This document shows positions 2,892-64,000 of a DNA stretch of 64,000 bases, in pieces; position 1 is the first letter of the stretch; every line of letters begins with the position of its first letter. The notes beneath the pieces are model-generated. The model made no database searches. It was not told the DNA's origin and worked only from the letters and a program-made list of their open reading frames with translations. A program made the translations under genes and the position numbers. Source of the DNA: Dehalococcoidia bacterium (GTDB taxonomy: Bacteria; Chloroflexota; Dehalococcoidia; Lucifugimonadales; SAR202-VII-2); NCBI GenBank assembly GCA_965263165.1, contig OZ253584.1, forward strand, positions 2,560,747 through 2,624,746, given 5' to 3'.

Positions 2892-4108
2892 GAGACCTTT
2901 GCGTAATCCCCATTGATGCGCCGTTTGGTTGGAATGAGGGTTCTGGCGGGGATTGGGGGGCCTGATGGCGGCCTGCGGCCTGGCTCTCCTCCCCGGTCTC
3001 CCTGACTTCTCAGGGCTTCCCGGGCGCTTCCACCCCCTGCGGGCACACGCCGCCCCCGGCGGTCAGGCGGCATCCAGCAGAAGACGGTCAGCCCGCCGCA
3101 GGTTGTATGCCGCACACTTGAAGAACAGCTCCGTGGCGTTCCGCGCTAGCCCCATGTACCGCACCCGCCGGTAGCCGTAGGTCCGCTTCAGCGTCCCAAA
3201 CACCTTCTCCACCGCCGACCGCTGCTGTGCTATCAGTGCGTTCCGCCGCTGCTCCCACGGCGGCAGCACCGGATGATGCTTGTCCGCCCGCCGCATGATC
3301 CGGTCCTTGATGCCCAGGGACTTGAGCCAGGCACTCCGCTGCTTCGACCCGTAGGCCTTGTCCGCATACACCGCCGCCTCATCTCCCCTCACCAACGCCT
3401 CCGCCACTTCCGTATCGTTCACGTTGGCCGGCGTCAGCACCGCCTCCCGGATCAGCCCTGACCCTGCATCCACCCCCACGTGCGCCTTGTAGCCGAACTG
3501 CGACACCCCCCGCTGGCGCGTGAACCGCGCATCGGGGTCGGTCTCGCTCGGCGCTCCCGGCCGCCTCCCTCGCAGCGAAGGACGCTTCGCCTGCGCCTCC
3601 ACGATGGTCGCATCAAGGAGCGTCCCCTTCTTCACGAAGAGGTTGCGCTGCGCCAATTGCCGGTCCATCTCCTTGAACAGTCGCAGGGCCAAACCCCGCT
3701 CCGTCACTTCCCTGCGGAAGCGGCTGATCGTCGAGTGGTCGGGGACGGCGTCCTCCAGGCCAAGCCCCACGAACCGCTTGAACGAGACCCGGTCCCACAG
3801 CGCTTCCTCGATCGCTTCGTCGGAAGCGTCATACCACTGCTGGAGCACCATGACCTTGACCATCACCACCGGCGGATAGCTCGGACGGCCTGACGGGGCG
3901 GCATAGATGCCCTTGACCACGTTGGCCAACTCCTTCCAGTCCAGCATCGCCTCGAGCCGCTCCAACTTCCCGTTCCGTCCGACTCGGTCCGGGAGAAGCA
4001 CCTCAATGAACGACTGTCCACGTATCGTCCGGTGCATGGCTTCCCCTCCTTGGCGTTGGCTCTCCGTGCTGATTGTGCCTGACCAGAAAGAGGTTATGCA
4101 AAGGTCTC
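2892..4108 (-). mobile_element. IS5-family insertion sequence, complete (1217 bp), GTAC target duplication
   Basis: Terminal IRs GAGACCTTTGCRTAA at both ends; GTAC at 2888-2891 and 4109-4112; single transposase ORF. Confidence 0.95.
3063..4037 (-). CDS. IS5-family DDE transposase (324 aa)
   Basis: GRPSYP, PDHSTISRFR, LDATIVEA, GYKAHVGVD, YADKAY, VEKVFG motifs. Confidence 0.95.
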   Translation of the reverse strand: MHRTIRGQSFIEVLLPDRVGRNGKLERLEAMLDWKELANVVKGIYAAPSGRPSYPPVVMVKVMVLQQWYDASDEAIEEALWDRVSFKRFVGLGLEDAVPDHSTISRFRREVTERGLALRLFKEMDRQLAQRNLFVKKGTLLDATIVEAQAKRPSLRGRRPGAPSETDPDARFTRQRGVSQFGYKAHVGVDAGSGLIREAVLTPANVNDTEVAEALVRGDEAAVYADKAYGSKQRSAWLKSLGIKDRIMRRADKHHPVLPPWEQRRNALIAQQRSAVEKVFGTLKRTYGYRRVRYMGLARNATELFFKCAAYNLRRADRLLLDAA

Positions 4109-4202
4109 GTACTCGGGGGCAGGGACCGGAGGGTTGCCTTGAGCACGAGGGCAGTGATAGGAGGAGGCGACGCCGCGCCGAGGGGCGGCGGGGAAGGGTC
4201 CG

Positions 4203-7003: not shown

Positions 7004-7453
7004 GTGCAGCAACCTAGCTGGAAAGGGGTCAAGGTCGGCATCCTTCTAGGGACGCTTGGCCTCGCCCTCGCCCTGATCAACTGTAGCAGCGGCTCGGAGG
7101 CCGGCGACTATGGGCAAAGCTCAGAGTCCGGCTACTATTCGTATGCGGCGATCGGCGAGGGCGGTGTAGAACCCAGTCCCGACTTGGCTCTCATCGATAC
7201 CCTCCACTTTCATCGAGACGGGGCGCAGCTGGTTCTGTCGTACGACCTGGGCACCAACGCCTTCACAGGCACAGTGGAAAACACCACAGAGTCCACGCTG
7301 TCCAAGGTCAGGGTCGAAGTCCACCTCTCAAACGGGAGTAAGTTAGGTCCGACCACTCCGGTCGACCTGGCTCCCAGTCAGGTTGTGGCCATCACCCTCC
7401 CGGCAAGCAGTCACTCCTTCACCTTTTGGAGCGCATACCCAGAAGTCGGCTGA
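7004..7453 (+). CDS. Putative lipoprotein, hypothetical
   Basis: Hydrophobic signal ending LALALINC-SSG; beta-rich C-terminal domain; ends at the group II intron remnant. Confidence 0.7.
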   Translation: MQQPSWKGVKVGILLGTLGLALALINCSSGSEAGDYGQSSESGYYSYAAIGEGGVEPSPDLALIDTLHFHRDGAQLVLSYDLGTNAFTGTVENTTESTLSKVRVEVHLSNGSKLGPTTPVDLAPSQVVAITLPASSHSFTFWSAYPEVG

Positions 7454-36222: not shown

Positions 36223-36262
36223 ACCGGGGGGCCGCATCGGTGCGGCCCCCCGGTTTCTGTTT
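36223..36262 (+). terminator. Rho-independent terminator of the ribosomal superoperon
   Basis: 14-bp GC-rich stem with a tcgg loop, followed by tttctgttt. Confidence 0.85.
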
Positions 36263-36545
36263 GGCGGGGTGGTGCACAGGACGCCCGGCCAGACCGGCTG
36301 AAGCAGAACCGCGGCCACGCGCCGCCCCAACCGGGGCAAGGGCGTTAACGCCGGCAGCCGGCCTACCATCAGACTCGATTCGAGATGGCCCCCGACATCG
36401 CTTGCATAGGAAACGGCGCCGGACTGGGATTGGGGCCGCCCGGGGGCGCAAGGGAATGGCTCACTCTGGGGCGTCTACCAGATGAGGCAACCGCGCCGCC
36501 TCATCTGGCGTCCTGCAGAAAGCGCGGTGTATGATAATGTGCGAA

Positions 36546-37685
36546 ATGCACACCCCGAAACGTCTCGCGGTGCTTGGGTCAGGCGGAGCTCTTGGAGGGG
36601 CGGTCCTGGAGATCGCCAGAGCCTTTCCGGATCGGATCAAGGTTGTGGGGCTGGGGGCGCGCAGCAACACTTCCCTGCTGGCCCAGCAGATTCAAGAATT
36701 CCAGCCGGCCATGGTAGCCAACAGTGGCGGCTTCCAGCTTCCCCGCGGCTTCGAGGCCGGGTCCGCCAAGGTCGTTTCCACCGAAGAATTGGTGTCGAGC
36801 CCTGACGTTCACACGGTAGTGGTCACGGAAATGGGCGCCCTGGCGCTTGACTCCATCCTCCGGGCAATTCGCAACGGAAAGACCGTCGTCCTAGGCAACA
36901 AGGAAGCACTGATCATGGCGGGCCCGCTCCTGACCTATGAAGCCGCCCTGCACGACGCCAAGCTCATTCCGATGGACAGCGAGACGACGGCGGTGTGGCA
37001 GTGCATGATGGAGGAGCAGGAGCCGCCGGATCGGCTGATCATTCCGTCGCGGTTCGGGCCGGTTCTCGCGGGAGAGATGGGCCACATGGCCCGCGTTAGC
37101 CCGGAAACCTTCACCACCAGGGCCCGCCGTCCCCTGGGGCGGAAACGGGCCATAGACGGATCAACGCTGATGAATAAGGCCATGCAGGTCGCCGAGGTCC
37201 ACTACCTGTTCAACATACCCCTAGACCGCATTGCCGTGCTGTTCCACCCACAGGACCGGGTGAGGGCGCTGCTGGAGCTTTCGGACGGTGCCATCAAGGC
37301 TGTGATGGCCTCATCCGATCCGCGCCTGGCTATTCAGGTTGCGTTGGCCTTTCCAGAACGATGGGGGAACGCCGAGCTGCCGAGCATTACAGCTGCAGAC
37401 CTGACGGAGCTGACGTTTCACTCATTAGAGGAGAACCAGTTCCCGTGCTTCAGCCTTGCGTTGGATGCCGTGAAACGGGGCAGCACCTACCCCGCCGCCC
37501 TCAACGCCGCCAACGAGACGGCGGTATCCCTGTTCCTCTACCAACAGATAGGCTTCCAAGAGATACCCACGATTATCGAGCGGACGCTGGCCTCGCACCA
37601 GCCTGTGGCAGACCCCACCTACGACGACATCATCGCCACCGATAACTGGGCTAGGGAGTTTGCCGCCGCGCAAACGGCCAGCTAG
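36546..37685 (+). CDS. DXR (1-deoxy-D-xylulose 5-phosphate reductoisomerase)-like protein with a degenerate active site
   Basis: DXR fold (LGSGGALG, LGNKE, MDSE, MNK, AALNAANE), but multiple catalytic residues are substituted. Confidence 0.85.
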   Translation: MHTPKRLAVLGSGGALGGAVLEIARAFPDRIKVVGLGARSNTSLLAQQIQEFQPAMVANSGGFQLPRGFEAGSAKVVSTEELVSSPDVHTVVVTEMGALALDSILRAIRNGKTVVLGNKEALIMAGPLLTYEAALHDAKLIPMDSETTAVWQCMMEEQEPPDRLIIPSRFGPVLAGEMGHMARVSPETFTTRARRPLGRKRAIDGSTLMNKAMQVAEVHYLFNIPLDRIAVLFHPQDRVRALLELSDGAIKAVMASSDPRLAIQVALAFPERWGNAELPSITAADLTELTFHSLEENQFPCFSLALDAVKRGSTYPAALNAANETAVSLFLYQQIGFQEIPTIIERTLASHQPVADPTYDDIIATDNWAREFAAAQTAS

Positions 37686-37693
37686 GGCTACAG

Positions 37694-38788
37694 CTACTCG
37701 TAGACGATGACGCCTCGGCCGGGCAGGCCGCGCTCCAGGTCTCCGTAGGCCTCGTTGACTTGGTCTATGCCGTAGGCGCGTTGCTTGAGGTTCGCCAGGT
37801 CCAGCTTGCCCTCCTGCACCAGCCGCGTCAGTTTGGGAAAGTCCACGTGGGCGCGCGCCGATCCGTAGTAGCAGCCCTTGACGACCTTCTCCATGCGGGT
37901 AAGCGTCGTCAGATCGACTGACAGGGCTTCGCCCACCGGCGCCAACCCGACGATGGTCACGGTCCCGGCCTTGCGGGCGGCGTCGTAGGCAACCTTGGAC
38001 GTTGCTGCGCCCCCAAAGGACTCGAAGGTGTAGTCGGCGCCAAGGCCTCCGGTGAGCTCCTTGATGCGGGCCACGGGATCTTCCCTGGATGCGTTGACGG
38101 CGTCTGTGGCGCCGAACTGCGCGGCCATCTGCAATGCCTCGTCGCTAACGTCCACGGCGATGATCGTCCCGGCGTTGACCAGGCGGGCGCCCTGCAGGAT
38201 GTTGAGCCCCACTCCGCCGCAACCGATCACGGCAACGCTGCTGCCTGCCTCAACCTGGGCCGTGTTGATCACGGCGCCCACGCCCGTGGGGACGCTGCAC
38301 CCCATGAGGGCCGCCTGGTCCAGCGGAAACCCCTGCGGAAGCTTCACGCACGCCGAGGCGGGCACCACGGCATACTGTCCAAAGCAGCCGAGCTTTGCGA
38401 ATTGGTAGATCTCAGTGTCGCCCTTGCGGAGGCGGGTTGTGCCGTCCATCAAGGCGCCCCTGGCCACGGAGCCCACGTCGCAGAGATACGGACGGCCAAT
38501 GCTGCAATAGTGGCAGAAGCCGCAGTTGGGGACGAAGCTGAGGATAACGGGGTCGCCCACGCCGATGGTGGATACGCCGGGCCCCAACTCTTCCACAATG
38601 GCCGCTCCTTCGTGGCCCAGCACGACAGGCATCATGAAGGGAGCGTGGCCCACCATGAAATGGTAGTCGCTCCGACAGACTCCGGCGGAGGCCATGCGCA
38701 CCAGGACCTCGTTCTCGCGAGGCGGCAGGACCTCCAACTCCGCAATGACCATGGGTGTATTGGGCTCGTAGAGAACAGCCGCTTTCAT
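37694..38788 (-). CDS. Zn-dependent alcohol dehydrogenase (class III-like)
   Basis: CRSD, GHEGA, CGFCHYC...C, GCGGVG. Confidence 0.92.
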   Translation of the reverse strand: MKAAVLYEPNTPMVIAELEVLPPRENEVLVRMASAGVCRSDYHFMVGHAPFMMPVVLGHEGAAIVEELGPGVSTIGVGDPVILSFVPNCGFCHYCSIGRPYLCDVGSVARGALMDGTTRLRKGDTEIYQFAKLGCFGQYAVVPASACVKLPQGFPLDQAALMGCSVPTGVGAVINTAQVEAGSSVAVIGCGGVGLNILQGARLVNAGTIIAVDVSDEALQMAAQFGATDAVNASREDPVARIKELTGGLGADYTFESFGGAATSKVAYDAARKAGTVTIVGLAPVGEALSVDLTTLTRMEKVVKGCYYGSARAHVDFPKLTRLVQEGKLDLANLKQRAYGIDQVNEAYGDLERGLPGRGVIVYE

Positions 38789-38875
38789 GGTTTGATTCCT
38801 CCCTTGCTGTGTGGGCCCGGCCCTTCGGGGCCAAACTTTCCTAGCTTCAACTGCGATTCAGGCTCTTGAACAGCG

Positions 38876-39646
38876 CTAGCGAGCGTCTCTCCGCGGCATG
38901 AAAAAGTCGTCGCGGACGAAGATGTTTCCGGTCAGGTAGTAACCCTGGGGAGAGGCGAGCAGCACCGCCAGCGGAGCAATGTCCTCCGGCAAGCCGACTG
39001 TGTTCGCTTCACGTTTGTGGGACTGTATCTGTTGCGGCATATCCCGACGCCACAACTCGGTGTCGGTGGCGCCGGGGGCGAAGGCATTCACCGTAATGCT
39101 GGAGGCCGCCAGCTCCTGGGCCAGGGCCCTGGTGAAGGCGATGACGCCTCCTTTGGACGCGACGTAATGGGCGTTGCCCACTGCCAGGGGGACCGCTCTG
39201 GGCCGCACCCCAAGCAGGGAGGCAAAGTTGATGATCCTTCCCTCTCCGCGGGTCTCCATGTGAGGGATCGAGGCCTTGCAACAGAGGTATGTTCCCTTCA
39301 AGTTCAGGTCCAGGATGCGGTCCCATTCATCTTCCGGCAGGTCTTTGAGGTTGAAGTTCCCGCCGCTGGCGGCCGTGTTCACGAGGACGTCCAATCCACC
39401 AAGTGCGTCGACCACCGACGCCACCGTCTGCGTCACCTGGGACGCATCCGAAATGTCGGCGGCGAATGCCTCGGCTTTGCCTCCCTCCTCCTTGATCTGC
39501 GCCTTCACGCTCTCAGCGCTGGCAAGCCGGTTGTCGACCAACGCAACGGTCGCACCGGACCGGGCCATCTCGAGGGCGAACGCCCTGCCGAAGCCCCCGC
39601 CCCCACCGGTGATGAGGGCCACCTTATCGTCCAATCGGATGTCCAT
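38876..39646 (-). CDS. SDR family oxidoreductase
   Basis: TGGGGGFG, YVASK. Confidence 0.92.
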   Translation of the reverse strand: MDIRLDDKVALITGGGGGFGRAFALEMARSGATVALVDNRLASAESVKAQIKEEGGKAEAFAADISDASQVTQTVASVVDALGGLDVLVNTAASGGNFNLKDLPEDEWDRILDLNLKGTYLCCKASIPHMETRGEGRIINFASLLGVRPRAVPLAVGNAHYVASKGGVIAFTRALAQELAASSITVNAFAPGATDTELWRRDMPQQIQSHKREANTVGLPEDIAPLAVLLASPQGYYLTGNIFVRDDFFMPRRDAR

Positions 39647-39670
39647 AGATTCTCCCTGGCGGGTGGGCGG

Positions 39671-40483
39671 CTAAGCTTGGGGCGAAGACCCGCCCCGGCC
39701 GCCGTTGACGTCCAAGACCGCTCCGGTGATGTAACCCGCAGCGTCGGAGGCGAGATAGGTCACAGCTGCGGCGTGCTCCTCAACGAGGCCCACGCGTCCC
39801 AGGGGCGTGCTGCTCAGCATTGCAGCCTCCACTGCCCCGCCTCCACCCTTCGTTCGATGAGGCGTCTCTATCAGCGACGGAGCGATGACGTTGACGCGGA
39901 TGGTGGGTGCCCATTCAGCGGCCATGGTCTTGGTCAGGCTGATGACGGCGGCTTTGGCGGCGCCGTATGACGCTTGTCCAGGACACGGCCCCTGCCCTGT
40001 GATTGAAGCCACGTTTACGATGGCGCCCCTGCCCTGCTCCATCATCGCCGGGGCGACTGCGCGGCTGCAGAGAAAGGCCGTGACGACGTTCAGGCGATAG
40101 GCCTCCATCATGTCGCGGCTGCCTATTTCGAGGATGGGACCCTTCGTGAACGTTTCCCCCCAGCTTCCCTCGGCGTTGTTGACCAGGATGTCGACGCGCC
40201 CGAACTCCGCCAGGGCCTTCTCGACAATGCCGTCCACCTGCGCCTCATCCCTAACGTCGGCGGTGATGCCAATGGCGCGGCGTCCCTTGGCCCGAAGCTC
40301 CTCAACGGCCGCATTGACAGGAGCGTGAGGGCGTTCGGCGCCGCTGGTCACAGCCTCTGGGAGTCTGGCCACGACGACGATATTGGCGCCGGCGTCGGCA
40401 AGGGAATGGGCTATGCCCCGCCCTAGCCCCTGGCTGCCACCGGTCACAATGGCGACCCTGCCTTCGAGATCGAACAGCGACAT
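39671..40483 (-). CDS. SDR family oxidoreductase
   Basis: TGGSQGLG, YGAAK. Confidence 0.92.
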   Translation of the reverse strand: MSLFDLEGRVAIVTGGSQGLGRGIAHSLADAGANIVVVARLPEAVTSGAERPHAPVNAAVEELRAKGRRAIGITADVRDEAQVDGIVEKALAEFGRVDILVNNAEGSWGETFTKGPILEIGSRDMMEAYRLNVVTAFLCSRAVAPAMMEQGRGAIVNVASITGQGPCPGQASYGAAKAAVISLTKTMAAEWAPTIRVNVIAPSLIETPHRTKGGGGAVEAAMLSSTPLGRVGLVEEHAAAVTYLASDAAGYITGAVLDVNGGRGGSSPQA

Positions 40484-40793: not shown

Positions 40794-41402
40794 TTGCCAG
40801 CATCCGCTCTTCGCCTTGCCCTAAAAGAATGGGCGGTCACCGTCAAGGCCATGGATGAAGGACGGCAGATACTCCTACTGCGAAAGGGAGGCATCCGGGA
40901 GGAAGCAAAGGAGTTTCGCCTGCTTCATCCCCGCTTTCTTCTCTACCCCAGCTACGAGCATCAACAGGAGTCGCTGCTGCAACCCGCGTTCCACAGCGCC
41001 CTTGCCGCCACGTTCCGGGAACGGCCGGAAGAGGGCTTCGCTCTCTTCACTCATTGGGGCGAGGTCACTGAATCGTTCGACATCATGGAGGAAGAGCGGG
41101 TGGCGGCGCTGACCCCGCTCCACATCTGGACAGCGGAGTACGCGGCCAAACGACTCCACTGGCGGCCCCGCAAGCCTCTCATGGCCATGCTGGTGCGCCT
41201 GTACCGGCTTCCGGCGGCGCGCCTCGTTCCGGTGTTGCCCCGGTACGCCGGTTGCACCTCTTGGGTGGAGCTGGAAGACGAGATACCCGTCGAAGGATCG
41301 GTTCCCGCCGTGTCAGAGAGCCGGTTCGCAGAGCAGTCAGAAGCGGCGCGCCGGATTCTGAGGACATCGATGTCTCCAACCACCGCAGAGGTTGCTGGGT
41401 GA
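40794..41402 (+). CDS. DUF1802-family protein
   Basis: ALKEWAV...GRQILLLRKGGIRE; TTG start after AGGAG; TATAAT at 40755-40760. Confidence 0.8.
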   Translation: MPASALRLALKEWAVTVKAMDEGRQILLLRKGGIREEAKEFRLLHPRFLLYPSYEHQQESLLQPAFHSALAATFRERPEEGFALFTHWGEVTESFDIMEEERVAALTPLHIWTAEYAAKRLHWRPRKPLMAMLVRLYRLPAARLVPVLPRYAGCTSWVELEDEIPVEGSVPAVSESRFAEQSEAARRILRTSMSPTTAEVAG

Positions 41403-42409
41403 AATACCGCAAGCTGGGACGCACTGATCTCGAACTGTCGGAGGTGGGTTTTGGGGTGTGGACTGTCAGCACGGGCTGGTGGGGCCGGATTGAGCCGTCC
41501 GACGCCGAGAGGCTGTTGCAACAGGCCCTCGACCTGGGCGTAACGTTCTTTGACACCGCTGACACCTATGGCCTGGGCGCCGGCGAGGAGATCCTGGCGA
41601 GGGCCTTCAAGAACCAGCGCCATGAAATCATCATCGGCGACAAGTTTGGTTACGACTGGTACGCCAACCGGGAGCGCACCGGCCACCAGGAGCGGCCGCA
41701 GAGGTGGGAGCCCGACTTCATCCGGTATGCCTGCGAGCAGTCTCTGCGCCGCCTTCAGACCGACTACATTGACCTCTATCAGCTCCACAACCCCCGTCTC
41801 GACGCCATAGAGCGGGACGAGATCTTCTCGATCCTCGACGCGTTGGTGGCGGAGGGGAAGATCCGGCATTACGGCATCGCTATTGGCCCAGACATCGGTT
41901 GGGAAGACGAGGGCATGGCCAGCATGCAGGAGCGCGGCGTCGAAAGCCTGCAGATCATCTACAGCGCCTTGGAGCAGCAGCCGGCCCGCAACTTCTTCCC
42001 GGTCGCTGAGGAGACGCAGACAGGCCTCCTGTCTCGCGTGCCCCACGCTTCGGAGGTGCTGACCGACGATTTTGTGGCCAAGCCACCGTCATTCGACGCT
42101 GACGATCACAGGGCCCATCGCCGTCAGCGGTGGTTGGACAACGCCATGAGGAAACGGGAGCAGGTGGTGTTCATGGGCGCCAGCGCCGGCAGGACACTGG
42201 CGCAGGCCGCCATTCAGTTCTGCCTCGCTGAGCCGACGATCGCCTCGGTGTTGCCGAACATTGTGCGACCGGACCAGTTGAGCGAGTTCGCGGCCGCACC
42301 GGAGAAGCCGCCACTGGAGCAGGACGAGTTGGCGCACCTGAAAGAGCGCTTCGATGAGAACTTCGGCTTGGAGCCCCTACCGGAGGAAGCCCTGCGCTCG
42401 TCGCGCTAG
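41399..42409 (+). CDS. Aldo/keto reductase
   Basis: YRKLGRTDLELSEVGFG, FDTADTYG, SLRRLQTDYIDLYQLH; GTG overlaps the upstream stop. Confidence 0.92.
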   Translation: MKYRKLGRTDLELSEVGFGVWTVSTGWWGRIEPSDAERLLQQALDLGVTFFDTADTYGLGAGEEILARAFKNQRHEIIIGDKFGYDWYANRERTGHQERPQRWEPDFIRYACEQSLRRLQTDYIDLYQLHNPRLDAIERDEIFSILDALVAEGKIRHYGIAIGPDIGWEDEGMASMQERGVESLQIIYSALEQQPARNFFPVAEETQTGLLSRVPHASEVLTDDFVAKPPSFDADDHRAHRRQRWLDNAMRKREQVVFMGASAGRTLAQAAIQFCLAEPTIASVLPNIVRPDQLSEFAAAPEKPPLEQDELAHLKERFDENFGLEPLPEEALRSSR

Positions 42410-42687
42410 GAGTCGGCGAAGATCCCTTCTCCGACAAAGTGGTCCGCCGCCTCTTCGAAGGTGGTGTCGGGCGGGGGTATCACCACATCAGACGGCACTA
42501 GCTCGTCCTCGGATAGTGGTTGCCCCTCAGAGCGCACGAGATCCTGCATCTGCTCGAACAGCGTGTGGAAAGCGTCGCGGTCGCCCTGGTCAACGACCTC
42601 GACGAGCTGGTTGTCGAGGTCGTTCAGCCTGGTGATAAGGTCGTCGTCTAACCTGAATTGGCCCGCCGTCACAATTCGTACGATCAT
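42406..42687 (-). CDS. pspAA: PspA-associated protein PspAA
   Basis: MIVRIVTAGQFRL...PSDVVIPPPD; coupled to the pspA stop. Confidence 0.8.
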   Translation of the reverse strand: MIVRIVTAGQFRLDDDLITRLNDLDNQLVEVVDQGDRDAFHTLFEQMQDLVRSEGQPLSEDELVPSDVVIPPPDTTFEEAADHFVGEGIFADS

Positions 42688-43415
42688 GAGGCACCGTCCC
42701 CCAGTTGCTTGTTGTCGCCGCTCCCAAGCTGACGCCTCATTGCCTCCAGCTCCAGGTCGACGTTCTGGCCGGCCGTAAGCTCCGCAAGCTCCCTATCGAG
42801 GCTGTCACCTGACAGCGAAACGTCGTCTAGGACGCCCGAATCGGCAAGCTGGTCAATGGCTGATGACCTGGAGCGCATCGCCTCGATCTTGTGCTCCGCT
42901 CGCTCCACAGCGAGGCCGACGTCCGCCATCTCCTCGGAGACGCCTGTGAGGGCTTCACCGATCTTCACGCTGGCCTCGGCGGCGGTGTATTGGGCCTTCA
43001 GACTCTCCCGGCGGGTGCGGAACGCTTCGACCTTAGCCGACAGCCGCTGCTCAGAGAGGGTCAGGCGCTCCTGTTCCTCCTCGACGCCGGTAATCTGTTG
43101 CTCAAGCCCCTCCAACTCAATGAGGGCGGCCTGCTTCCGTTGTAGGGCGAGCCGGGCCAGGTCCTCGCGGCCCAACTCCATTGCCTGCCGCGCCTGTTCC
43201 TCGAGCTTGGGAATCTTGGCGCTGACCTTCTCCGACTGCATCTCCAGGCGGCGGCGGGAGGAGGCAACTTCAACCACGCCCTGCTTCACCTTGCGCAGCA
43301 GTTCAACCTGCTTCTCGTAGGAGTAGTCGAGCGTCTGACGGGGGTCTTCGGCTCTGTCGAGGACGGAGCTCATCTTGGACTTGAGGATCATTGATGTCCG
43401 TGAGAGCAGACCCAT
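42684..43415 (-). CDS. pspA: PspA/IM30 family protein (own RBS, but in frame with the upstream cytochrome c)
   Basis: AEDPRQTLDYSYEKQ, REDLARLAL, coiled coil; GGAGG before the ATG at 43415. Confidence 0.9.
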   Translation of the reverse strand: MGLLSRTSMILKSKMSSVLDRAEDPRQTLDYSYEKQVELLRKVKQGVVEVASSRRRLEMQSEKVSAKIPKLEEQARQAMELGREDLARLALQRKQAALIELEGLEQQITGVEEEQERLTLSEQRLSAKVEAFRTRRESLKAQYTAAEASVKIGEALTGVSEEMADVGLAVERAEHKIEAMRSRSSAIDQLADSGVLDDVSLSGDSLDRELAELTAGQNVDLELEAMRRQLGSGDNKQLGDGAS

Positions 43416-44000
43416 GGCGCCTCCCGTTGGCGGGTCCTGCGGCGCGCGTGGCGCGCCTCGTGGATACCGCTTCTGTATCGTTTTTATGTACGCTATGAGG
43501 GCGCGAACGTCGTCCTGGGACATGATGCCGGCGTAGGCGGCGGGCATCATATTCGGTTGAAAGCCATCCACGAGCTTCGCGCCCGGTTCCATGATGGACT
43601 CCTCGAGGTAGGCGTCGTCCACCAAGACGGTCGAGCCGTCCGATAGAGTCTCGGTACTGCCGAAGACCCCCAGCCAGGTGGGGCCAATGCCGCTGCTGCC
43701 ATCCAGGGAGTGACACGCTATGCAGCCATTGGCTTGGGCCACGGCCTCTCCAATCGCCGCGAGGTCTGGTTCGCCATCGCCGTTGGAAGACGGTTCATGG
43801 CCATCACTGCCGGGCGGGGGAGGCGTGGGCGACGGGGTGATGTCGTCGATGGTAAGGCTGGTGTCGATGCCCGAAGCCGGGGGAGGATTGGCGCTGGCCT
43901 GCCAGCCGTAGCGGGCGGCCCGGCAGCCGCTCAGCGCAACGACGAGGATCAAGGCGACGATGGCGACAAGCAGGGCCTTTCGGAGGAGGGTGAAGCTCAT
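43416..44000 (-). CDS. Lipoprotein monoheme cytochrome c; no stop before pspA
   Basis: Lipobox LSGC, CIACH heme motif, GPTW..DDAYLEESI..MMP typical of CoxB-type cytochrome c domains; extended -10 TGGTACTAT at 44051-44059. Confidence 0.85.
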
Positions 44001-44116
44001 GCCGCGGGGCTCTCCGTGGGTGTGATTGTCGAAGCTGTCCACGGCCAGCCATAGTACCACAGATTGGGCCGAGGCTGCATCCGCGGCTCGGGGTTGGCGC
44101 ACCCCTGCCCCAGTCT

Positions 44117-44190
44117 GTCCCTTCCCCCGACTAACAGGGAAGGTGTGTTGCGCGTCACTACCCCCCGTACTCGGGGGCAGGGAGGAAGGG
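44117..44190. repeat. REP-like family A copies (two degenerate)
   Basis: gtcccttcccccgac...gggaagg and ccccccgtactcgggggcaggga. Confidence 0.65.
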
Positions 44191-44211
44191 GGTCCCATTC
44201 CCTCCGGGCCC

Positions 44212-47659: not shown

Positions 47660-48391
47660 TCAGAACGTCTCGGCGTCAGGGCCGAACCACTTCTCAATGA
47701 GGGCGTTCAATGAGCCGTCTTCCTTCATAGCGTCGATGGCCCGGTTCAGCTTGTCTTTCAACGAGCCGTCGTCCTCCCGTACACCGATGCCGATACCGGA
47801 GTCGAGCGTTACTTGGGGGCCGACTATTGCCAACCCCTCTGCGCTTTTCGCCATGCGCTCGTGGGCGAACTCGATATCGACCAGCGTCGCATCCGCCTCA
47901 CCGCTCAGGACAGCCGAAAAGACATCCTCGGCCAATTCGTACTCCAGCAGCGTTGCGTCGGATTGGGACAGATAGTCTGCTTGGATGGTGGCCACCTGTG
48001 CGGCCACCCTACCGGCAACCACTTCGTCACCGGCTCCCGCCAGGGCAACGTAGACCGACGCGCCGGGCGGAATATACGGCTGCGTGAAGTCGATAACCTC
48101 GTCCCGCTCATCGGTGATGCTCATTCCGGCGAGGATGGTGTCGTAGTCGCCCGCAACCAGGTTGGGTATGATGCTGTCCCATGCGTTGGTCACCCAGGCG
48201 CATTCGAGTTCGGCCCGCCGGCATAGTTCGTCGCCCAACTCCCGCTCGAACCCGTCGACCTCGCCGCTATCGTTGATGAAGTTGTAGGGAGGATAGGCTC
48301 CCTCTGTGCCCATTTTGACGGCGTCGGATCCTCCGGTGCACGACAGGCAGATGAAGATGAGTATGGCGATCGCAAGAGTCAGTCTAACCAT
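47660..48391 (-). CDS. ABC transporter polar amino acid substrate-binding lipoprotein
   Basis: Lipobox LSC, GTEGAYPPYNF, AGMSITDER; no permease or ATPase nearby. Confidence 0.9.
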   Translation of the reverse strand: MVRLTLAIAILIFICLSCTGGSDAVKMGTEGAYPPYNFINDSGEVDGFERELGDELCRRAELECAWVTNAWDSIIPNLVAGDYDTILAGMSITDERDEVIDFTQPYIPPGASVYVALAGAGDEVVAGRVAAQVATIQADYLSQSDATLLEYELAEDVFSAVLSGEADATLVDIEFAHERMAKSAEGLAIVGPQVTLDSGIGIGVREDDGSLKDKLNRAIDAMKEDGSLNALIEKWFGPDAETF

Positions 48392-48541
48392 GTTTCCGTT
48401 CTCCTTGATTGCTCCGTGATGCCGAGCGCTACCAACATCTTCCCATCCAGACCGATCAGCGTTTCTGGGGCAGACCCGGAGACCGGATATCCTGTTCGCC
48501 GGTCGCTCCTGGCGCAGTGGTGTAGACTCGGGGGAGAATAC

Positions 48542-48626
48542 TGGTGGGGAAGCCGGGACTCGAACCCGGACGCCTTGCGGCACATGATCCTAAGTCATGC
48601 TCGTCTGCCAATTCCGACACTTCCCC
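48542..48626 (-). tRNA. trnL: tRNA-Leu(TAG), intact
   Basis: GGGGAAG/CTTCCCC acceptor stem, CATGA-CTTAGGA-TCATG anticodon arm, CCGGG-TTCGAGT-CCCGG T arm, ACCA end. Confidence 0.97.
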
Positions 48627-62650: not shown

Positions 62651-62865
62651 ATCGTCAAGATGCTCAAGTATCACCATGAAGCGGGCTGCCGCTCCACTCC
62701 GTTCCTGGCGCCGGACTACCCCTCTGCGACGGCTACACTACGGCTACGCGACAGTTCTGTGCCTGGCGCCCCCAACATTCGGCTGATGAGAGTAGCCAAC
62801 ATACAACATGCAATCAAAGACCGAACCTTCTCCCGGTGAATTCCCCCGTCCCTTCCCCCGGGTAC

Positions 62866-64000
62866 GAGACCTTTGCATAACCTCTTTCTGGTCAGGCACA
62901 ATCAGCACGGAGAGCCAACGCCAAGGAGGGGAAGCCATGCACCGGACGATACGTGGACAGTCGTTCATTGAGGTGCTTCTCCCGGACCGAGTCGGACGGA
63001 ACGGGAAGTTGGAGCGGCTCGAGGCGATGCTGGACTGGAAGGAGTTGGCCAACGTGGTCAAGGGCATCTATGCCGCCCCGTCAGGCCGTCCGAGCTATCC
63101 GCCGGTGGTGATGGTCAAGGTCATGGTGCTCCAGCAGTGGTATGACGCTTCCGACGAAGCGATCGAGGAAGCGCTGTGGGACCGGGTCTCGTTCAAGCGG
63201 TTCGTGGGGCTTGGCCTGGAGGACGCCGTCCCCGACCACTCGACGATCAGCCGCTTCCGCAGGGAAGTGACGGAGCGGGGTTTGGCCCTGCGACTGTTCA
63301 AGGAGATGGACCGGCAATTGGCGCAGCGCAACCTCTTCGTGAAGAAGGGGACGCTCCTCGATGCGACCATCGTGGAGGCGCAGGCGAAGCGTCCTTCGCT
63401 GCGAGGGAGGCGGCCGGGAGCGCCGAGCGAGACCGACCCCGATGCGCGGTTCACGCGCCAGCGGGGGGTGTCGCAGTTCGGCTACAAGGCGCACGTGGGG
63501 GTGGATGCAGGGTCAGGGCTGATCCGGGAGGCGGTGCTGACGCCGGCCAACGTGAACGATACGGAAGTGGCGGAGGCGTTGGTGAGGGGAGATGAGGCGG
63601 CGGTGTATGCGGACAAGGCCTACGGGTCGAAGCAGCGGAGTGCCTGGCTCAAGTCCCTGGGCATCAAGGACCGGATCATGCGGCGGGCGGACAAGCATCA
63701 TCCGGTGCTGCCGCCGTGGGAGCAGCGGCGGAACGCACTGATAGCACAGCAGCGGTCGGCGGTGGAGAAGGTGTTTGGGACGCTGAAGCGGACCTACGGC
63801 TACCGGCGGGTGCGGTACATGGGGCTAGCGCGGAACGCCACGGAGCTGTTCTTCAAATGTGCGGCATACAACCTGCGGCGGGCGGACCGTCTTCTGCTGG
63901 ATGCCGCCTGACCGCCGGGGGCGGCGTGTGCCCGCAGGGGGTGGAAGCGCCCGGGAAGCCCTGAGAAGTCAGGGAGACCGGGGAGGAGAGCCAGGCCGCA
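62866..64000 (+). mobile_element. IS5-family element, second copy (right end beyond the window)
   Basis: Left IR GAGACCTTTGCATAA preceded by cccccgggTAC; near-identical to 2892-4108. Confidence 0.95.
62937..63911 (+). CDS. IS5-family transposase (324 aa)
   Basis: Same protein sequence as 3063-4037. Confidence 0.95.
   Translation: MHRTIRGQSFIEVLLPDRVGRNGKLERLEAMLDWKELANVVKGIYAAPSGRPSYPPVVMVKVMVLQQWYDASDEAIEEALWDRVSFKRFVGLGLEDAVPDHSTISRFRREVTERGLALRLFKEMDRQLAQRNLFVKKGTLLDATIVEAQAKRPSLRGRRPGAPSETDPDARFTRQRGVSQFGYKAHVGVDAGSGLIREAVLTPANVNDTEVAEALVRGDEAAVYADKAYGSKQRSAWLKSLGIKDRIMRRADKHHPVLPPWEQRRNALIAQQRSAVEKVFGTLKRTYGYRRVRYMGLARNATELFFKCAAYNLRRADRLLLDAA

Follow-up and report, generated by a model that had tools for sequence, protein, structure and literature searches.

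At positions 36546–37685 on the forward strand of the window (the whole 64-kb stretch of DNA that we analysed) lies a coding sequence of 379 amino acid residues plus a stop codon, which carries the Pfam domains of DXP reductoisomerase (DXR) and whose exact protein product is present on public contigs. An alternative upstream ATG at 36531 would give an open reading frame of 384 residues (36531–37685, forward strand); in alignments, the N-termini of homologues fit the start at 36546 better, and public copies of the gene have been called as 384 or 382 residues long by different gene callers. The frame contains no frameshift and no internal stop, and its GC3 of 0.77 is like that of the neighbouring genes. 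Upstream, rpsI is followed by an intrinsic-terminator-like hairpin (36223–36254, forward strand) with a 14-bp stem, 12 G-C pairs and a T-rich tail, and this predicted element separates the DXR-like gene from the ribosomal-protein operon. The non-coding region that follows (36255–36545, forward strand) presumably holds the gene's own promoter, from which the DXR-like gene would be transcribed alone, downstream of the terminator after rpsI. A sigma-70 consensus scan of this upstream region revealed no full promoter, and an Rfam scan no riboswitch or other RNA family. The stretch TATGATAAT at 36530–36538 resembles a −10 box; if it acts as one, transcription would begin close to the ATG at 36546 and yield a leaderless mRNA. 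On the other side, a convergent gene for a Zn-dependent alcohol dehydrogenase (37694–38788, reverse strand) ends with its stop codon 9 nt from that of the DXR-like gene. Its best NCBIfam match is the NDMA-dependent alcohol dehydrogenase, below the model cut-off, and the two genes remain adjacent in relatives that are 81% and 61% identical.

All three Pfam domains of DXR are matched above the Pfam cut-offs (PF02670, 7e-22; PF08436, 3e-13; PF13288, 1e-32), in agreement with an earlier note on this DNA that had described a full-length DXR homologue at 36546–37685. The C-terminal helical domain PF13288 (residues 254–371; 37305–37658, forward strand) is the best-conserved part of the protein and includes the motif LNAANE. 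The closest relative of solved structure is the Zymomonas DXR 1r0k (1.7e-61, 33–34% identity). An AlphaFold2 model, one of the checks that the note had proposed, reached a pLDDT of 91.4 and a pTM of 0.90, and the top 50 Foldseek matches of this model were all DXR structures, with TM scores of 0.85–0.92. The note's statement that fold and length are retained without frameshifts is thus borne out by the intact frame and by a confident DXR-fold model. On the curated NCBIfam models, the window protein scores 265.5 bits on TIGR00243 (cut-off 315.7), 291.1 bits on NF009114 (cut-off 461) and 235.1 bits on NF003938 (cut-off 515). Four relatives from the subfamily described below (P0003, P0004, P0271 and P0277) reach 241–300 bits on TIGR00243, also below 315.7, whereas three canonical Chloroflexota DXRs used as a control score 438–446 bits, above the cut-off.

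We next aligned the protein with E. coli DXR, whose residue numbering is used for all substitutions; the E. coli reference sequence, which we take to be correct, has the right residue at each of 12 known positions. The motif changes listed in the earlier note are all present in these alignments, in which the changes reported here were verified, and all the motifs lie on the forward strand. The segment GSGGALG (residues 11–17, 36576–36596) replaces GSTGSIG and retains the dinucleotide motif GxxGxxG (G8, G11 and G14); none of the subfamily's three subclades has lost these glycines, with NADPH binding as the prediction. GNKEA (residues 117–121, 36894–36908) corresponds to the A123-N124-K125-E126 region of E. 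coli DXR and keeps its N-K-E, which is lost in subclade B (GNIDT), while A123G is a family signature. In MDSETT (residues 143–148, 36972–36989), DSEH has become DSET: D150 and E152 are kept as D144 and E146, with S151 also kept between them, and H153 is replaced by threonine. PSRFGP (residues 167–172, 37044–37061) replaces TASGGP, in general form (T/G)(A/G)SGGP, with S186R and G187F, and position 187 is aromatic throughout the subfamily. The arginine-rich lid loop TRARRPLGRKR (residues 191–201, 37116–37148) replaces RHPNWSMGRKI by way of H209R, N211R, W212R, M214L and I218R, with the result that RARRPLG stands where HPNWSMG would be and the lid motif H209-P-x-W212-x-M214-G is absent. The net charge over E. 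coli positions 205–220 is +6, against a canonical mean of +1.4. The segment IDGSTLMNKAMQ (residues 203–214, 37152–37187) keeps N227 and K228 and carries S222G, G229A and E231Q (Q214), which turns IDSAT into IDGST and NKGLE into NKAMQ. HPQDRVRAL (residues 234–242, 37245–37271) keeps H251 and carries S254D and H257R (R240), HSMV becoming RALL, and SSDPR (residues 256–260, 37311–37325) replaces PDMR through M276P, a change restricted to subclades A and C.

These replacements affect the metal, phosphate and substrate sites. The metal triad, which we take to consist of D150, E152 and E231, is incomplete, with D144 and E146 present and Q214 at the third position. Kuzuyama and colleagues reportedly found in 2000 that E231K nearly abolishes DXR activity and that the H153Q, H209Q and H257Q mutants have a higher Km for DXP. 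The residues that position DXP are gone from the window protein, namely the histidines H153, H209 and H257 and the tryptophan W212 (H153T, H209R, H257R and W212R). Published work on DXR (PMC9782300) assigns the binding of the phosphonate or phosphate group to Ser186, Ser222, Asn227 and Lys228 and describes packing of Trp212 on the ligand. Two of these four phosphate-pocket residues are exchanged in the window protein (S186R and S222G), and N227 and K228 (K211) are kept.

The same pattern recurs well beyond this locus. In assemblies of Chloroflexota/Dehalococcoidia, roughly 47 protein clusters share one signature, namely H153T/P, G187F/W/Y, loss of W212, S222A/G, G229A, E231Q and H257R, and in 46 sequences I13L, A123G and F190V are common features too. 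Glutamine occupies position 231 in all 46 members, W212 is absent from the subfamily, S222 is alanine or glycine in most of it and N227 varies; G8, G11, G14, E152, K228 and H251 are kept across all 46. No signature residue (Q231, R257, A/G222, aromatic 187, A229, G123 and L13) is missing from the window protein, its own cluster has 13 near-identical members, and the identical protein is present on independent assemblies. In an alignment of about 310 canonical DXRs from many phyla, the positions of the cluster signature are 90–100% conserved, G187, W212, E231 and H257 being invariant (100%) and S222 conserved at 97%. That the window protein differs at all five of these positions and that 46 relatives repeat the same replacements is more than chance would produce. 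Over the lid and linker (E. coli 186–220), the subfamily has a mean net charge of +7.1 versus a canonical mean of +1.8. In a neighbour-joining tree, the DXR-like group is monophyletic (bootstrap 99/100) and nested among Chloroflexota DXRs, with the window protein inside it. Pairwise dN/dS between the window gene and relative L001 is 0.061 (NG86) or 0.029 (ML), rough values given that dS is saturated in all pairs, and the adjacent alcohol dehydrogenase gene gives the same values. The phylogeny and dN/dS analysis suggested in the earlier note therefore yields a monophyletic clade under purifying selection. A scan of a metagenome collection with a clade-specific DNA pattern yielded three true members, of which one was new. 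Our literature search for a paralogue or pseudoenzyme derived from DXR-I found only papers on DXR-II/DRL, and this Chloroflexota subfamily is apparently undescribed so far.

The subclades differ from one another both in residues and in surroundings. K125/E126 have become I/D in subclade B, and D150 is asparagine in subclade C. The two largest subclades preserve both D150 and E152, with a further acidic residue (DDE) in subclade B. The variation of K125/E126, D150 and N227 across subclades is as compatible with a binding protein as with an enzyme, and we count it against the interpretation proposed below. The neighbourhoods consist of ADH/SDR in subclade A, sufB/sufD-PHP_C-hotdog-LbH in subclade B, where the DXR-like gene always follows sufB/sufD, and CYTH/Lit in subclade C; the 64-kb window contains no homologue of the subclade-B neighbours. 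Since the neighbourhoods differ between subclades, genomic context gives no common pathway, an observation that we also count against that interpretation.

Canonical dxr has a different location. In related (SAR202-type) genomes, it lies in the order rpsB-tsf-pyrH-frr-uppS-cdsA-dxr-rnt-rseP-ispG, whereas the DXR-like gene lies outside the uppS-cdsA-dxr-rseP-ispG cluster, between rpsI with its terminator and the convergent alcohol dehydrogenase gene. No isoprenoid gene was found among the annotated genes flanking it, and no second DXR homologue was matched within the 64-kb window. A GTDB scan with the subfamily alignment, whose patterns also match ordinary DXRs, returned 80 loci among the matches listed, all of them canonical. 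The candidate canonical partners P0531 and P0522 included nothing from the window's assembly.

Taken together, we lean slightly towards reading the gene as a neofunctionalised class-I DXR (IspC) paralogue, a putative NADPH-dependent oxidoreductase whose anionic substrate would not be DXP. The replaced residues, as read from the alignments, are those that bind metal, phosphate and substrate, and the replacements themselves are conserved in a monophyletic subfamily. The protein probably carries out a reaction different from that of DXR, because nearly all of the residues that serve the normal substrate are replaced and the same replacements define the subfamily. The retained Rossmann glycines, D150, E152 and K228, together with the conserved new arginines, favour an enzyme with a new substrate over a dead protein. 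According to this proposal, NADPH would still be bound, and the aspartate/glutamate site, joined by the glutamine, would still hold a divalent metal or polarise a carbonyl. The arginine-rich lid (R192, R194, R195, R199, K200 and R201, with R169 and R240) would close over a substrate more anionic than DXP and of another shape, for instance a carboxylated, sulfonated or doubly phosphorylated hydroxy-ketone. The bound substrate would then be reduced, and possibly rearranged too, and the protein would not be the cell's MEP synthase. The earlier note had taken the changes to point away from a canonical MEP-pathway DXR and towards either a pseudoenzyme or an enzyme that uses NADPH on a different substrate, and this view is supported by the scores below the cut-offs, the conserved replacements, the selection, the fold and the locus.

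The first branch of that alternative, a pseudoenzyme, is possible but in our opinion unlikely. Such a protein would keep the DXR fold, and perhaps the binding of NADPH or another ligand, with no catalysis, and would act in sensing, regulation or scaffolding. For subclade B, where sufB/sufD are adjacent, a link to the assembly of Fe-S clusters is conceivable. This reading is consistent with the replacement in every member of E231, the residue most tied to catalysis, with the variation of K125, E126, D150 and N227 across subclades, with the lack of any pathway context conserved across them, and with purifying selection of the kind expected for a working protein. On the other side, conservation extends to the new residues themselves (Q231, R257, A222, the aromatic residue at 187 and R209/R212), which points to a new, defined pocket and not to a relaxed one. 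D150 and E152 are moreover kept in the two largest subclades, subclade B has its DDE, and neither the Rossmann glycines nor the AGxN region has been lost.

It is improbable that the protein is still a DXP reductoisomerase, that is, a highly diverged MEP synthase of a third DXR type, perhaps naturally resistant to phosphonates like fosmidomycin and conceivably the sole DXR in these genomes. In favour of this reading, the gene occurs as a single, stand-alone copy with a housekeeping-like character and strong conservation, and the window protein keeps D150, S151, E152, N124-K125-E126, N227 and K228. MiaA, which needs DMAPP, is encoded in the window; substitution of S222 is said to be a known route to fosmidomycin resistance; and, as a very weak point, none of the DXR clusters listed, a small slice, lies on a contig with a DXR-like gene. 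All of this has to be set against the replacement of E231, H153, H209 and H257, each of which mutagenesis by Kuzuyama and colleagues in 2000 is said to have shown to matter for catalysis or for the binding of DXP, and of W212, S186 and S222 as well. The replaced positions are, in addition, 97–100% invariant in the roughly 310 canonical enzymes, sister subclades also lose K125, N227 or D150, and the gene lies outside the cluster that houses canonical dxr. The specific proposal that these Chloroflexota have as their sole MEP synthase a third DXR type, with an arginine-lined site lacking E231, H209, W212 and H257, is one to which we give very little credence. Hardly credible at all is a decaying pseudogene or assembly artefact that merely looks intact: many catalytic residues are indeed lost together, but the frame is intact, GC3 is 0.77, dN/dS is about 0.03–0.06 and the fold is confident, and we reject it on the identical copies in independent assemblies, the 13 near-identical members, the roughly 47 related clusters and the low dN/dS.

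Comparison with known systems places the protein next to class-I DXR/IspC (EC 1.1.1.267; E. coli IspC and Zymomonas mobilis 1R0K), with which it shares the three domains, the fold (TM about 0.9), a similar length and the elements GxxGxxG, N124-K125-E126, D150-S151-E152, N227-K228, HPQ and the LNAANE helix. Phylogenetically, the subfamily descends from DXRs of the Chloroflexota. It differs from class-I DXR in E231Q, H153T, S186R, G187F, H209R, N211R, W212R, M214L, S222G, G229A, H257R and M276P as found in the window protein, in scores below every curated equivalog cut-off and in gene neighbourhood. The coexistence of MEP synthesis and DXR-like oxidoreductase families is known from DXR-II/DRL of Brucella and its uncharacterised relatives DLO1 and DLO2, which are related to homoserine-dehydrogenase-like oxidoreductases and not to class-I DXR; DXR-II is also present in some Chloroflexi (PMC3847144). 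The window protein would be in a conceptually comparable position, related to a MEP synthase and NAD(P)-dependent but acting on another substrate. We rejected DRL identity, as all three class-I DXR domains are present and the NAD_binding_3 model (19.5 bits, cut-off 24) and the NCBIfam homoserine dehydrogenase model (18.5 bits, cut-off 205) both remain below their cut-offs. A self-resistance copy of a phosphonate producer is also unlikely, since the genes annotated in the window include none for phosphonate biosynthesis. A known example of such a producer copy is DxrB of the FR-900098 cluster, and a fosmidomycin-resistant variant of E. coli DXR is reportedly S222T. Our case resembles the resistant variants and DxrB in that an altered or additional DXR copy has S222 of the phosphonate pocket replaced; those proteins keep the metal triad, H209, W212, H257 and DXR activity, whereas more than 10 active-site positions are changed in the window protein. 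A mechanistic analogue of DXR, ketol-acid reductoisomerase (IlvC), uses metal and NADPH for an alkyl or acyloin rearrangement followed by reduction of carboxylated substrates. It illustrates how DXR chemistry might proceed on a carboxylate, although its fold and sequence are unrelated to those of the window protein.

DXR is a validated antibiotic and antimalarial target that is usually treated as a one-function family. The subfamily provides a natural experiment, of use to the study of enzyme evolution, on the retargeting of the DXR scaffold and on which residues DXR chemistry needs, and it may point to a new metabolite or reaction in abundant uncultured Chloroflexota of the ocean or associated with sponges. 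If the protein did make MEP, it would represent a new DXR class of direct relevance to fosmidomycin resistance, and intrinsic insensitivity to fosmidomycin-class phosphonates would be probable were it the sole MEP synthase. All Pfam domains and NCBIfam equivalog models of the family are named after DXR; the subfamily is a likely source of misannotation, such that reconstructions of the MEP pathway in marine Chloroflexota could miscount the DXR-like gene. In the public records, one member (P0002) is named DXR, and the members of subclade B appear as “hypothetical protein”.

The DXR-like gene is an uninterrupted ORF (36531-37685, plus strand) whose product matches all three DXR domains of Pfam, and its best solved relatives are all DXRs, the Zymomonas structure 1r0k coming first (1.7e-61). 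This agrees with its earlier description as a full-length DXR homologue without frameshift. Homologues favour the ATG at 36546 over that at 36531; the resulting 379-residue protein has its N-terminus in register with theirs in the alignment. TATGATAAT (36530-36546) covers the ATG annotated at 36531, with the ATG at 36546 about 7 nt farther 3′; should it act as a −10 box, transcription would begin at the 36546 codon and yield a leaderless mRNA. The gene is found downstream of rplM-rpsI, past a strong terminator-like hairpin (36223-36254) detected by a terminator scan, and faces a Zn-dependent alcohol dehydrogenase gene in convergent orientation.

We aligned the window protein with 120 database relatives and E. 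coli DXR, a reference sequence in which 12 landmark positions carry the expected residues. Every motif change listed in the earlier note was recovered: GSTGSIG to GSGGALG, DSEH to DSET, TASGGP to PSRFGP, HPxWxMG to RARRPLG, IDSAT to IDGST, NKGLE to NKAMQ, HSMV to RALL and PDMR to SDPR. E231, H153, H209, H257, W212, S186 and S222 (E. coli numbering) are thereby all exchanged. The metal of DXR is held by D150, E152 and E231. Kuzuyama et al. reportedly found in 2000 that E231K nearly abolishes DXR activity and that the Km for DXP is higher in the H153Q, H209Q and H257Q mutants. The phosphonate- or phosphate-binding residues of DXR are Ser186, Ser222, Asn227 and Lys228, and Trp212 packs against the ligand (PMC9782300). 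Judged from the alignment, the residues exchanged in the window protein are exactly the functional ones of DXR.

Among the matches listed in a first search of 5.8 billion proteins, the altered motifs occurred in five clusters only, at 99, 81, 61, 55 and 48% identity to the window protein, and matches at 45% identity or less were all canonical DXRs. When 1.84 billion representatives were searched exhaustively by profile, a few further divergent DXR-like representatives were added; after profile search of a large collection, the total reached about 47 clusters at 90% identity. Altered motifs common to so many clusters point to a family rather than an accident. Subclade A, which includes the window protein, carries PSRFGP, NKAMQ and MDSETT; subclade B, the largest, with many members on 1.6-2.5 Mb contigs, carries TSTWGT, [VT]KATQ, LDDEP and GNIDT; subclade C carries TSSYGP and SKAVQ. 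Relative to approximately 310 canonical DXRs, the subfamily signature comprises I13L, A123G, H153T/P, G187F/W/Y, F190V/A, loss of W212, S222A/G, G229A, E231Q, S254D/N/G and H257R, while G8, G11, G14, E152, K228, H251, D221 and T224 are retained. A neighbour-joining phylogeny, an analysis called for in the earlier note, places the subfamily in one clade that is supported by 99 of 100 bootstraps and lies nested within the DXRs of Chloroflexota. The simplest history would start with the duplication of a Chloroflexota dxr, after which came a burst of change and finally stasis. Since the contig of one subclade-C member (L093 413-1555, CEUS01283998.1) has a G+C content of 44%, versus 58-65% for other hosts, the subfamily spans lineages of very different composition. 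A full-text literature search for a DXR-like subfamily derived from DXR-I found DXR-II/DRL (Brucella-type MEP synthase) and its DLO relatives alone, which belong to an unrelated family. NCBIfam holds no model claiming the DXR-like proteins, and public records label them "DXR" or "hypothetical protein". By their sequences, these proteins form a conserved and apparently undescribed subfamily that derives from DXR and has a rebuilt active site.

The window protein retains the dinucleotide-binding glycines, the AGxN region, D150, E152 and K228; the D150/E152 acidic site is extended to DDE in subclade B. The exchanged residues are conserved in turn within the subfamily. Across the subfamily, the net charge of the lid and linker (E. 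coli 186-220) averages +7.1, versus +1.8 in canonical DXRs, and R209, R212, R218 and R257 are found repeatedly across subclades. The retained Rossmann glycines and D150/E152/K228, the conserved new residues and the cationic lid lead us to lean towards an enzyme that would bind NADPH via the retained motif and catalyse an oxidoreductase or reductoisomerase reaction, probably still assisted by a metal, in a pocket rebuilt for a different, more anionic substrate than that of DXR. The main rival, a pseudoenzyme that binds a ligand, is rather unlikely; it owes its standing to K125, E126, D150 and N227, which vary between subclades.

That the protein is a radically altered yet still functional DXR seems quite improbable. 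On TIGR00243 it scores 265.5 bits, below the cut-off of 315.7, and it falls even farther under the cut-offs of the other two NCBIfam equivalog models; four other DXR-like members score 241-300 bits on TIGR00243, and three canonical Chloroflexota DXRs 438-446. These curated models thus argue against DXR function. In SAR202-type genomes sequenced by the same project, canonical dxr is found in the order rpsB-tsf-pyrH-frr-uppS-cdsA-dxr-rnt-rseP-...-ispG, whereas the DXR-like gene lies 3′ of rplM-rpsI. The scores, the exchanged functional residues and this location outside the canonical neighbourhood all support the earlier view that it is not a canonical DXR. A MiaA homologue (tRNA dimethylallyltransferase, PF01715; 7773-8951, minus strand) implies that the organism needs DMAPP from some isoprenoid pathway. 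No second DXR match was found within the 64-kb window, and the matches listed in a GTDB scan for DXR-like loci were ordinary DXRs. Among the clusters listed, no contig of a DXR-like cluster agreed in length with one of a canonical DXR cluster.

A pseudogene or artefact is excluded by the presence of the identical protein on independent public assemblies, a 90% cluster of 13 members (contigs reaching 3.3 Mb), a GC3 resembling that of adjoining genes, dN far below dS and a confident DXR fold. The dN/dS comparison suggested previously gave 0.03-0.06 against the 81%-identical relative, the same values as for the adjoining alcohol dehydrogenase, figures that say no more than that dN is far below dS because dS is saturated. 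Retention of the fold, also proposed previously, is borne out by an AlphaFold2 model (pLDDT 91.4, pTM 0.90) whose best 50 PDB matches are DXRs (TM about 0.9). Low confidence is restricted to approximately residues 171-200, including the start of the lid, which is mobile in DXR crystals as well.

Gene neighbourhoods differ by subclade. In the window, a Zn-dependent alcohol dehydrogenase, two SDRs and an aldo-keto reductase (37694-40483, minus strand, and 41252-42409, plus strand) follow the DXR-like gene; the alcohol dehydrogenase is closest to NDMA-dependent enzymes, under that model's cut-off. This block also lies 3′ of the gene in the 81% relative (L001). Within subclade A, the convergent alcohol dehydrogenase alone is kept down to 61% identity, and an MFS transporter gene precedes the DXR-like gene in the 55% relative. 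Subclade B shows the order sufB/sufD, DXR-like, PHP_C, hotdog (FAS1_DH_region), hypothetical, LbH (hexapeptide), kept down to 59% protein identity (L086 7060-15299, L087 7042-13474, L108 3732-11476 and one JGI contig), with two or three sufB/sufD-type genes always directly 5′ of the DXR-like gene. This order may represent an operon tying the protein to Fe-S assembly or a small-molecule pathway. Subclade C neighbours encode a CYTH-domain protein and a Lit-family protein. No partner common to the three subclades was found in the annotated neighbourhoods, and context therefore names no pathway.

Elsewhere, the window contains a large ribosomal-protein cluster, recognized from its position and the pattern of its ORFs (Pfam identifies L13, S9 and truA), many SDR, ADH and AKR oxidoreductases, an amidohydrolase, a Rieske oxygenase, a hydantoinase-B homologue and an MFS transporter. 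Of the GTDB loci compared, the nearest in tetranucleotide composition comes from a SAR202-type Dehalococcoidia MAG. Two inverted copies of an IS element with a DDE_Tnp_1/DUF772 transposase (2974-4133, minus strand; 62843-64000, plus strand, reaching past the window end) are 99.4% identical over 1160 bp and enclose about 58 kb, including the ribosomal-protein cluster and the DXR-like gene. A group II intron catalytic domain (RF00029; 7505-7603, plus strand) scores 54.6 bits against a gathering threshold of 40; no reverse-transcriptase ORF was recognized beside it, the ORF at 7004-7453 having no Pfam match. The longest ORF (42684-44198, minus strand) joins cytochrome c and PspA/IM30 domains, which are encoded by two separate adjoining genes in L001, so that it probably either spans a pair of genes or starts farther 3′. 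A single tRNA gene (48545-48626, minus strand), just 5′ of an SBP_bac_3 solute-binding protein gene (47660-48583), overlaps the start of the longest SBP_bac_3 ORF.
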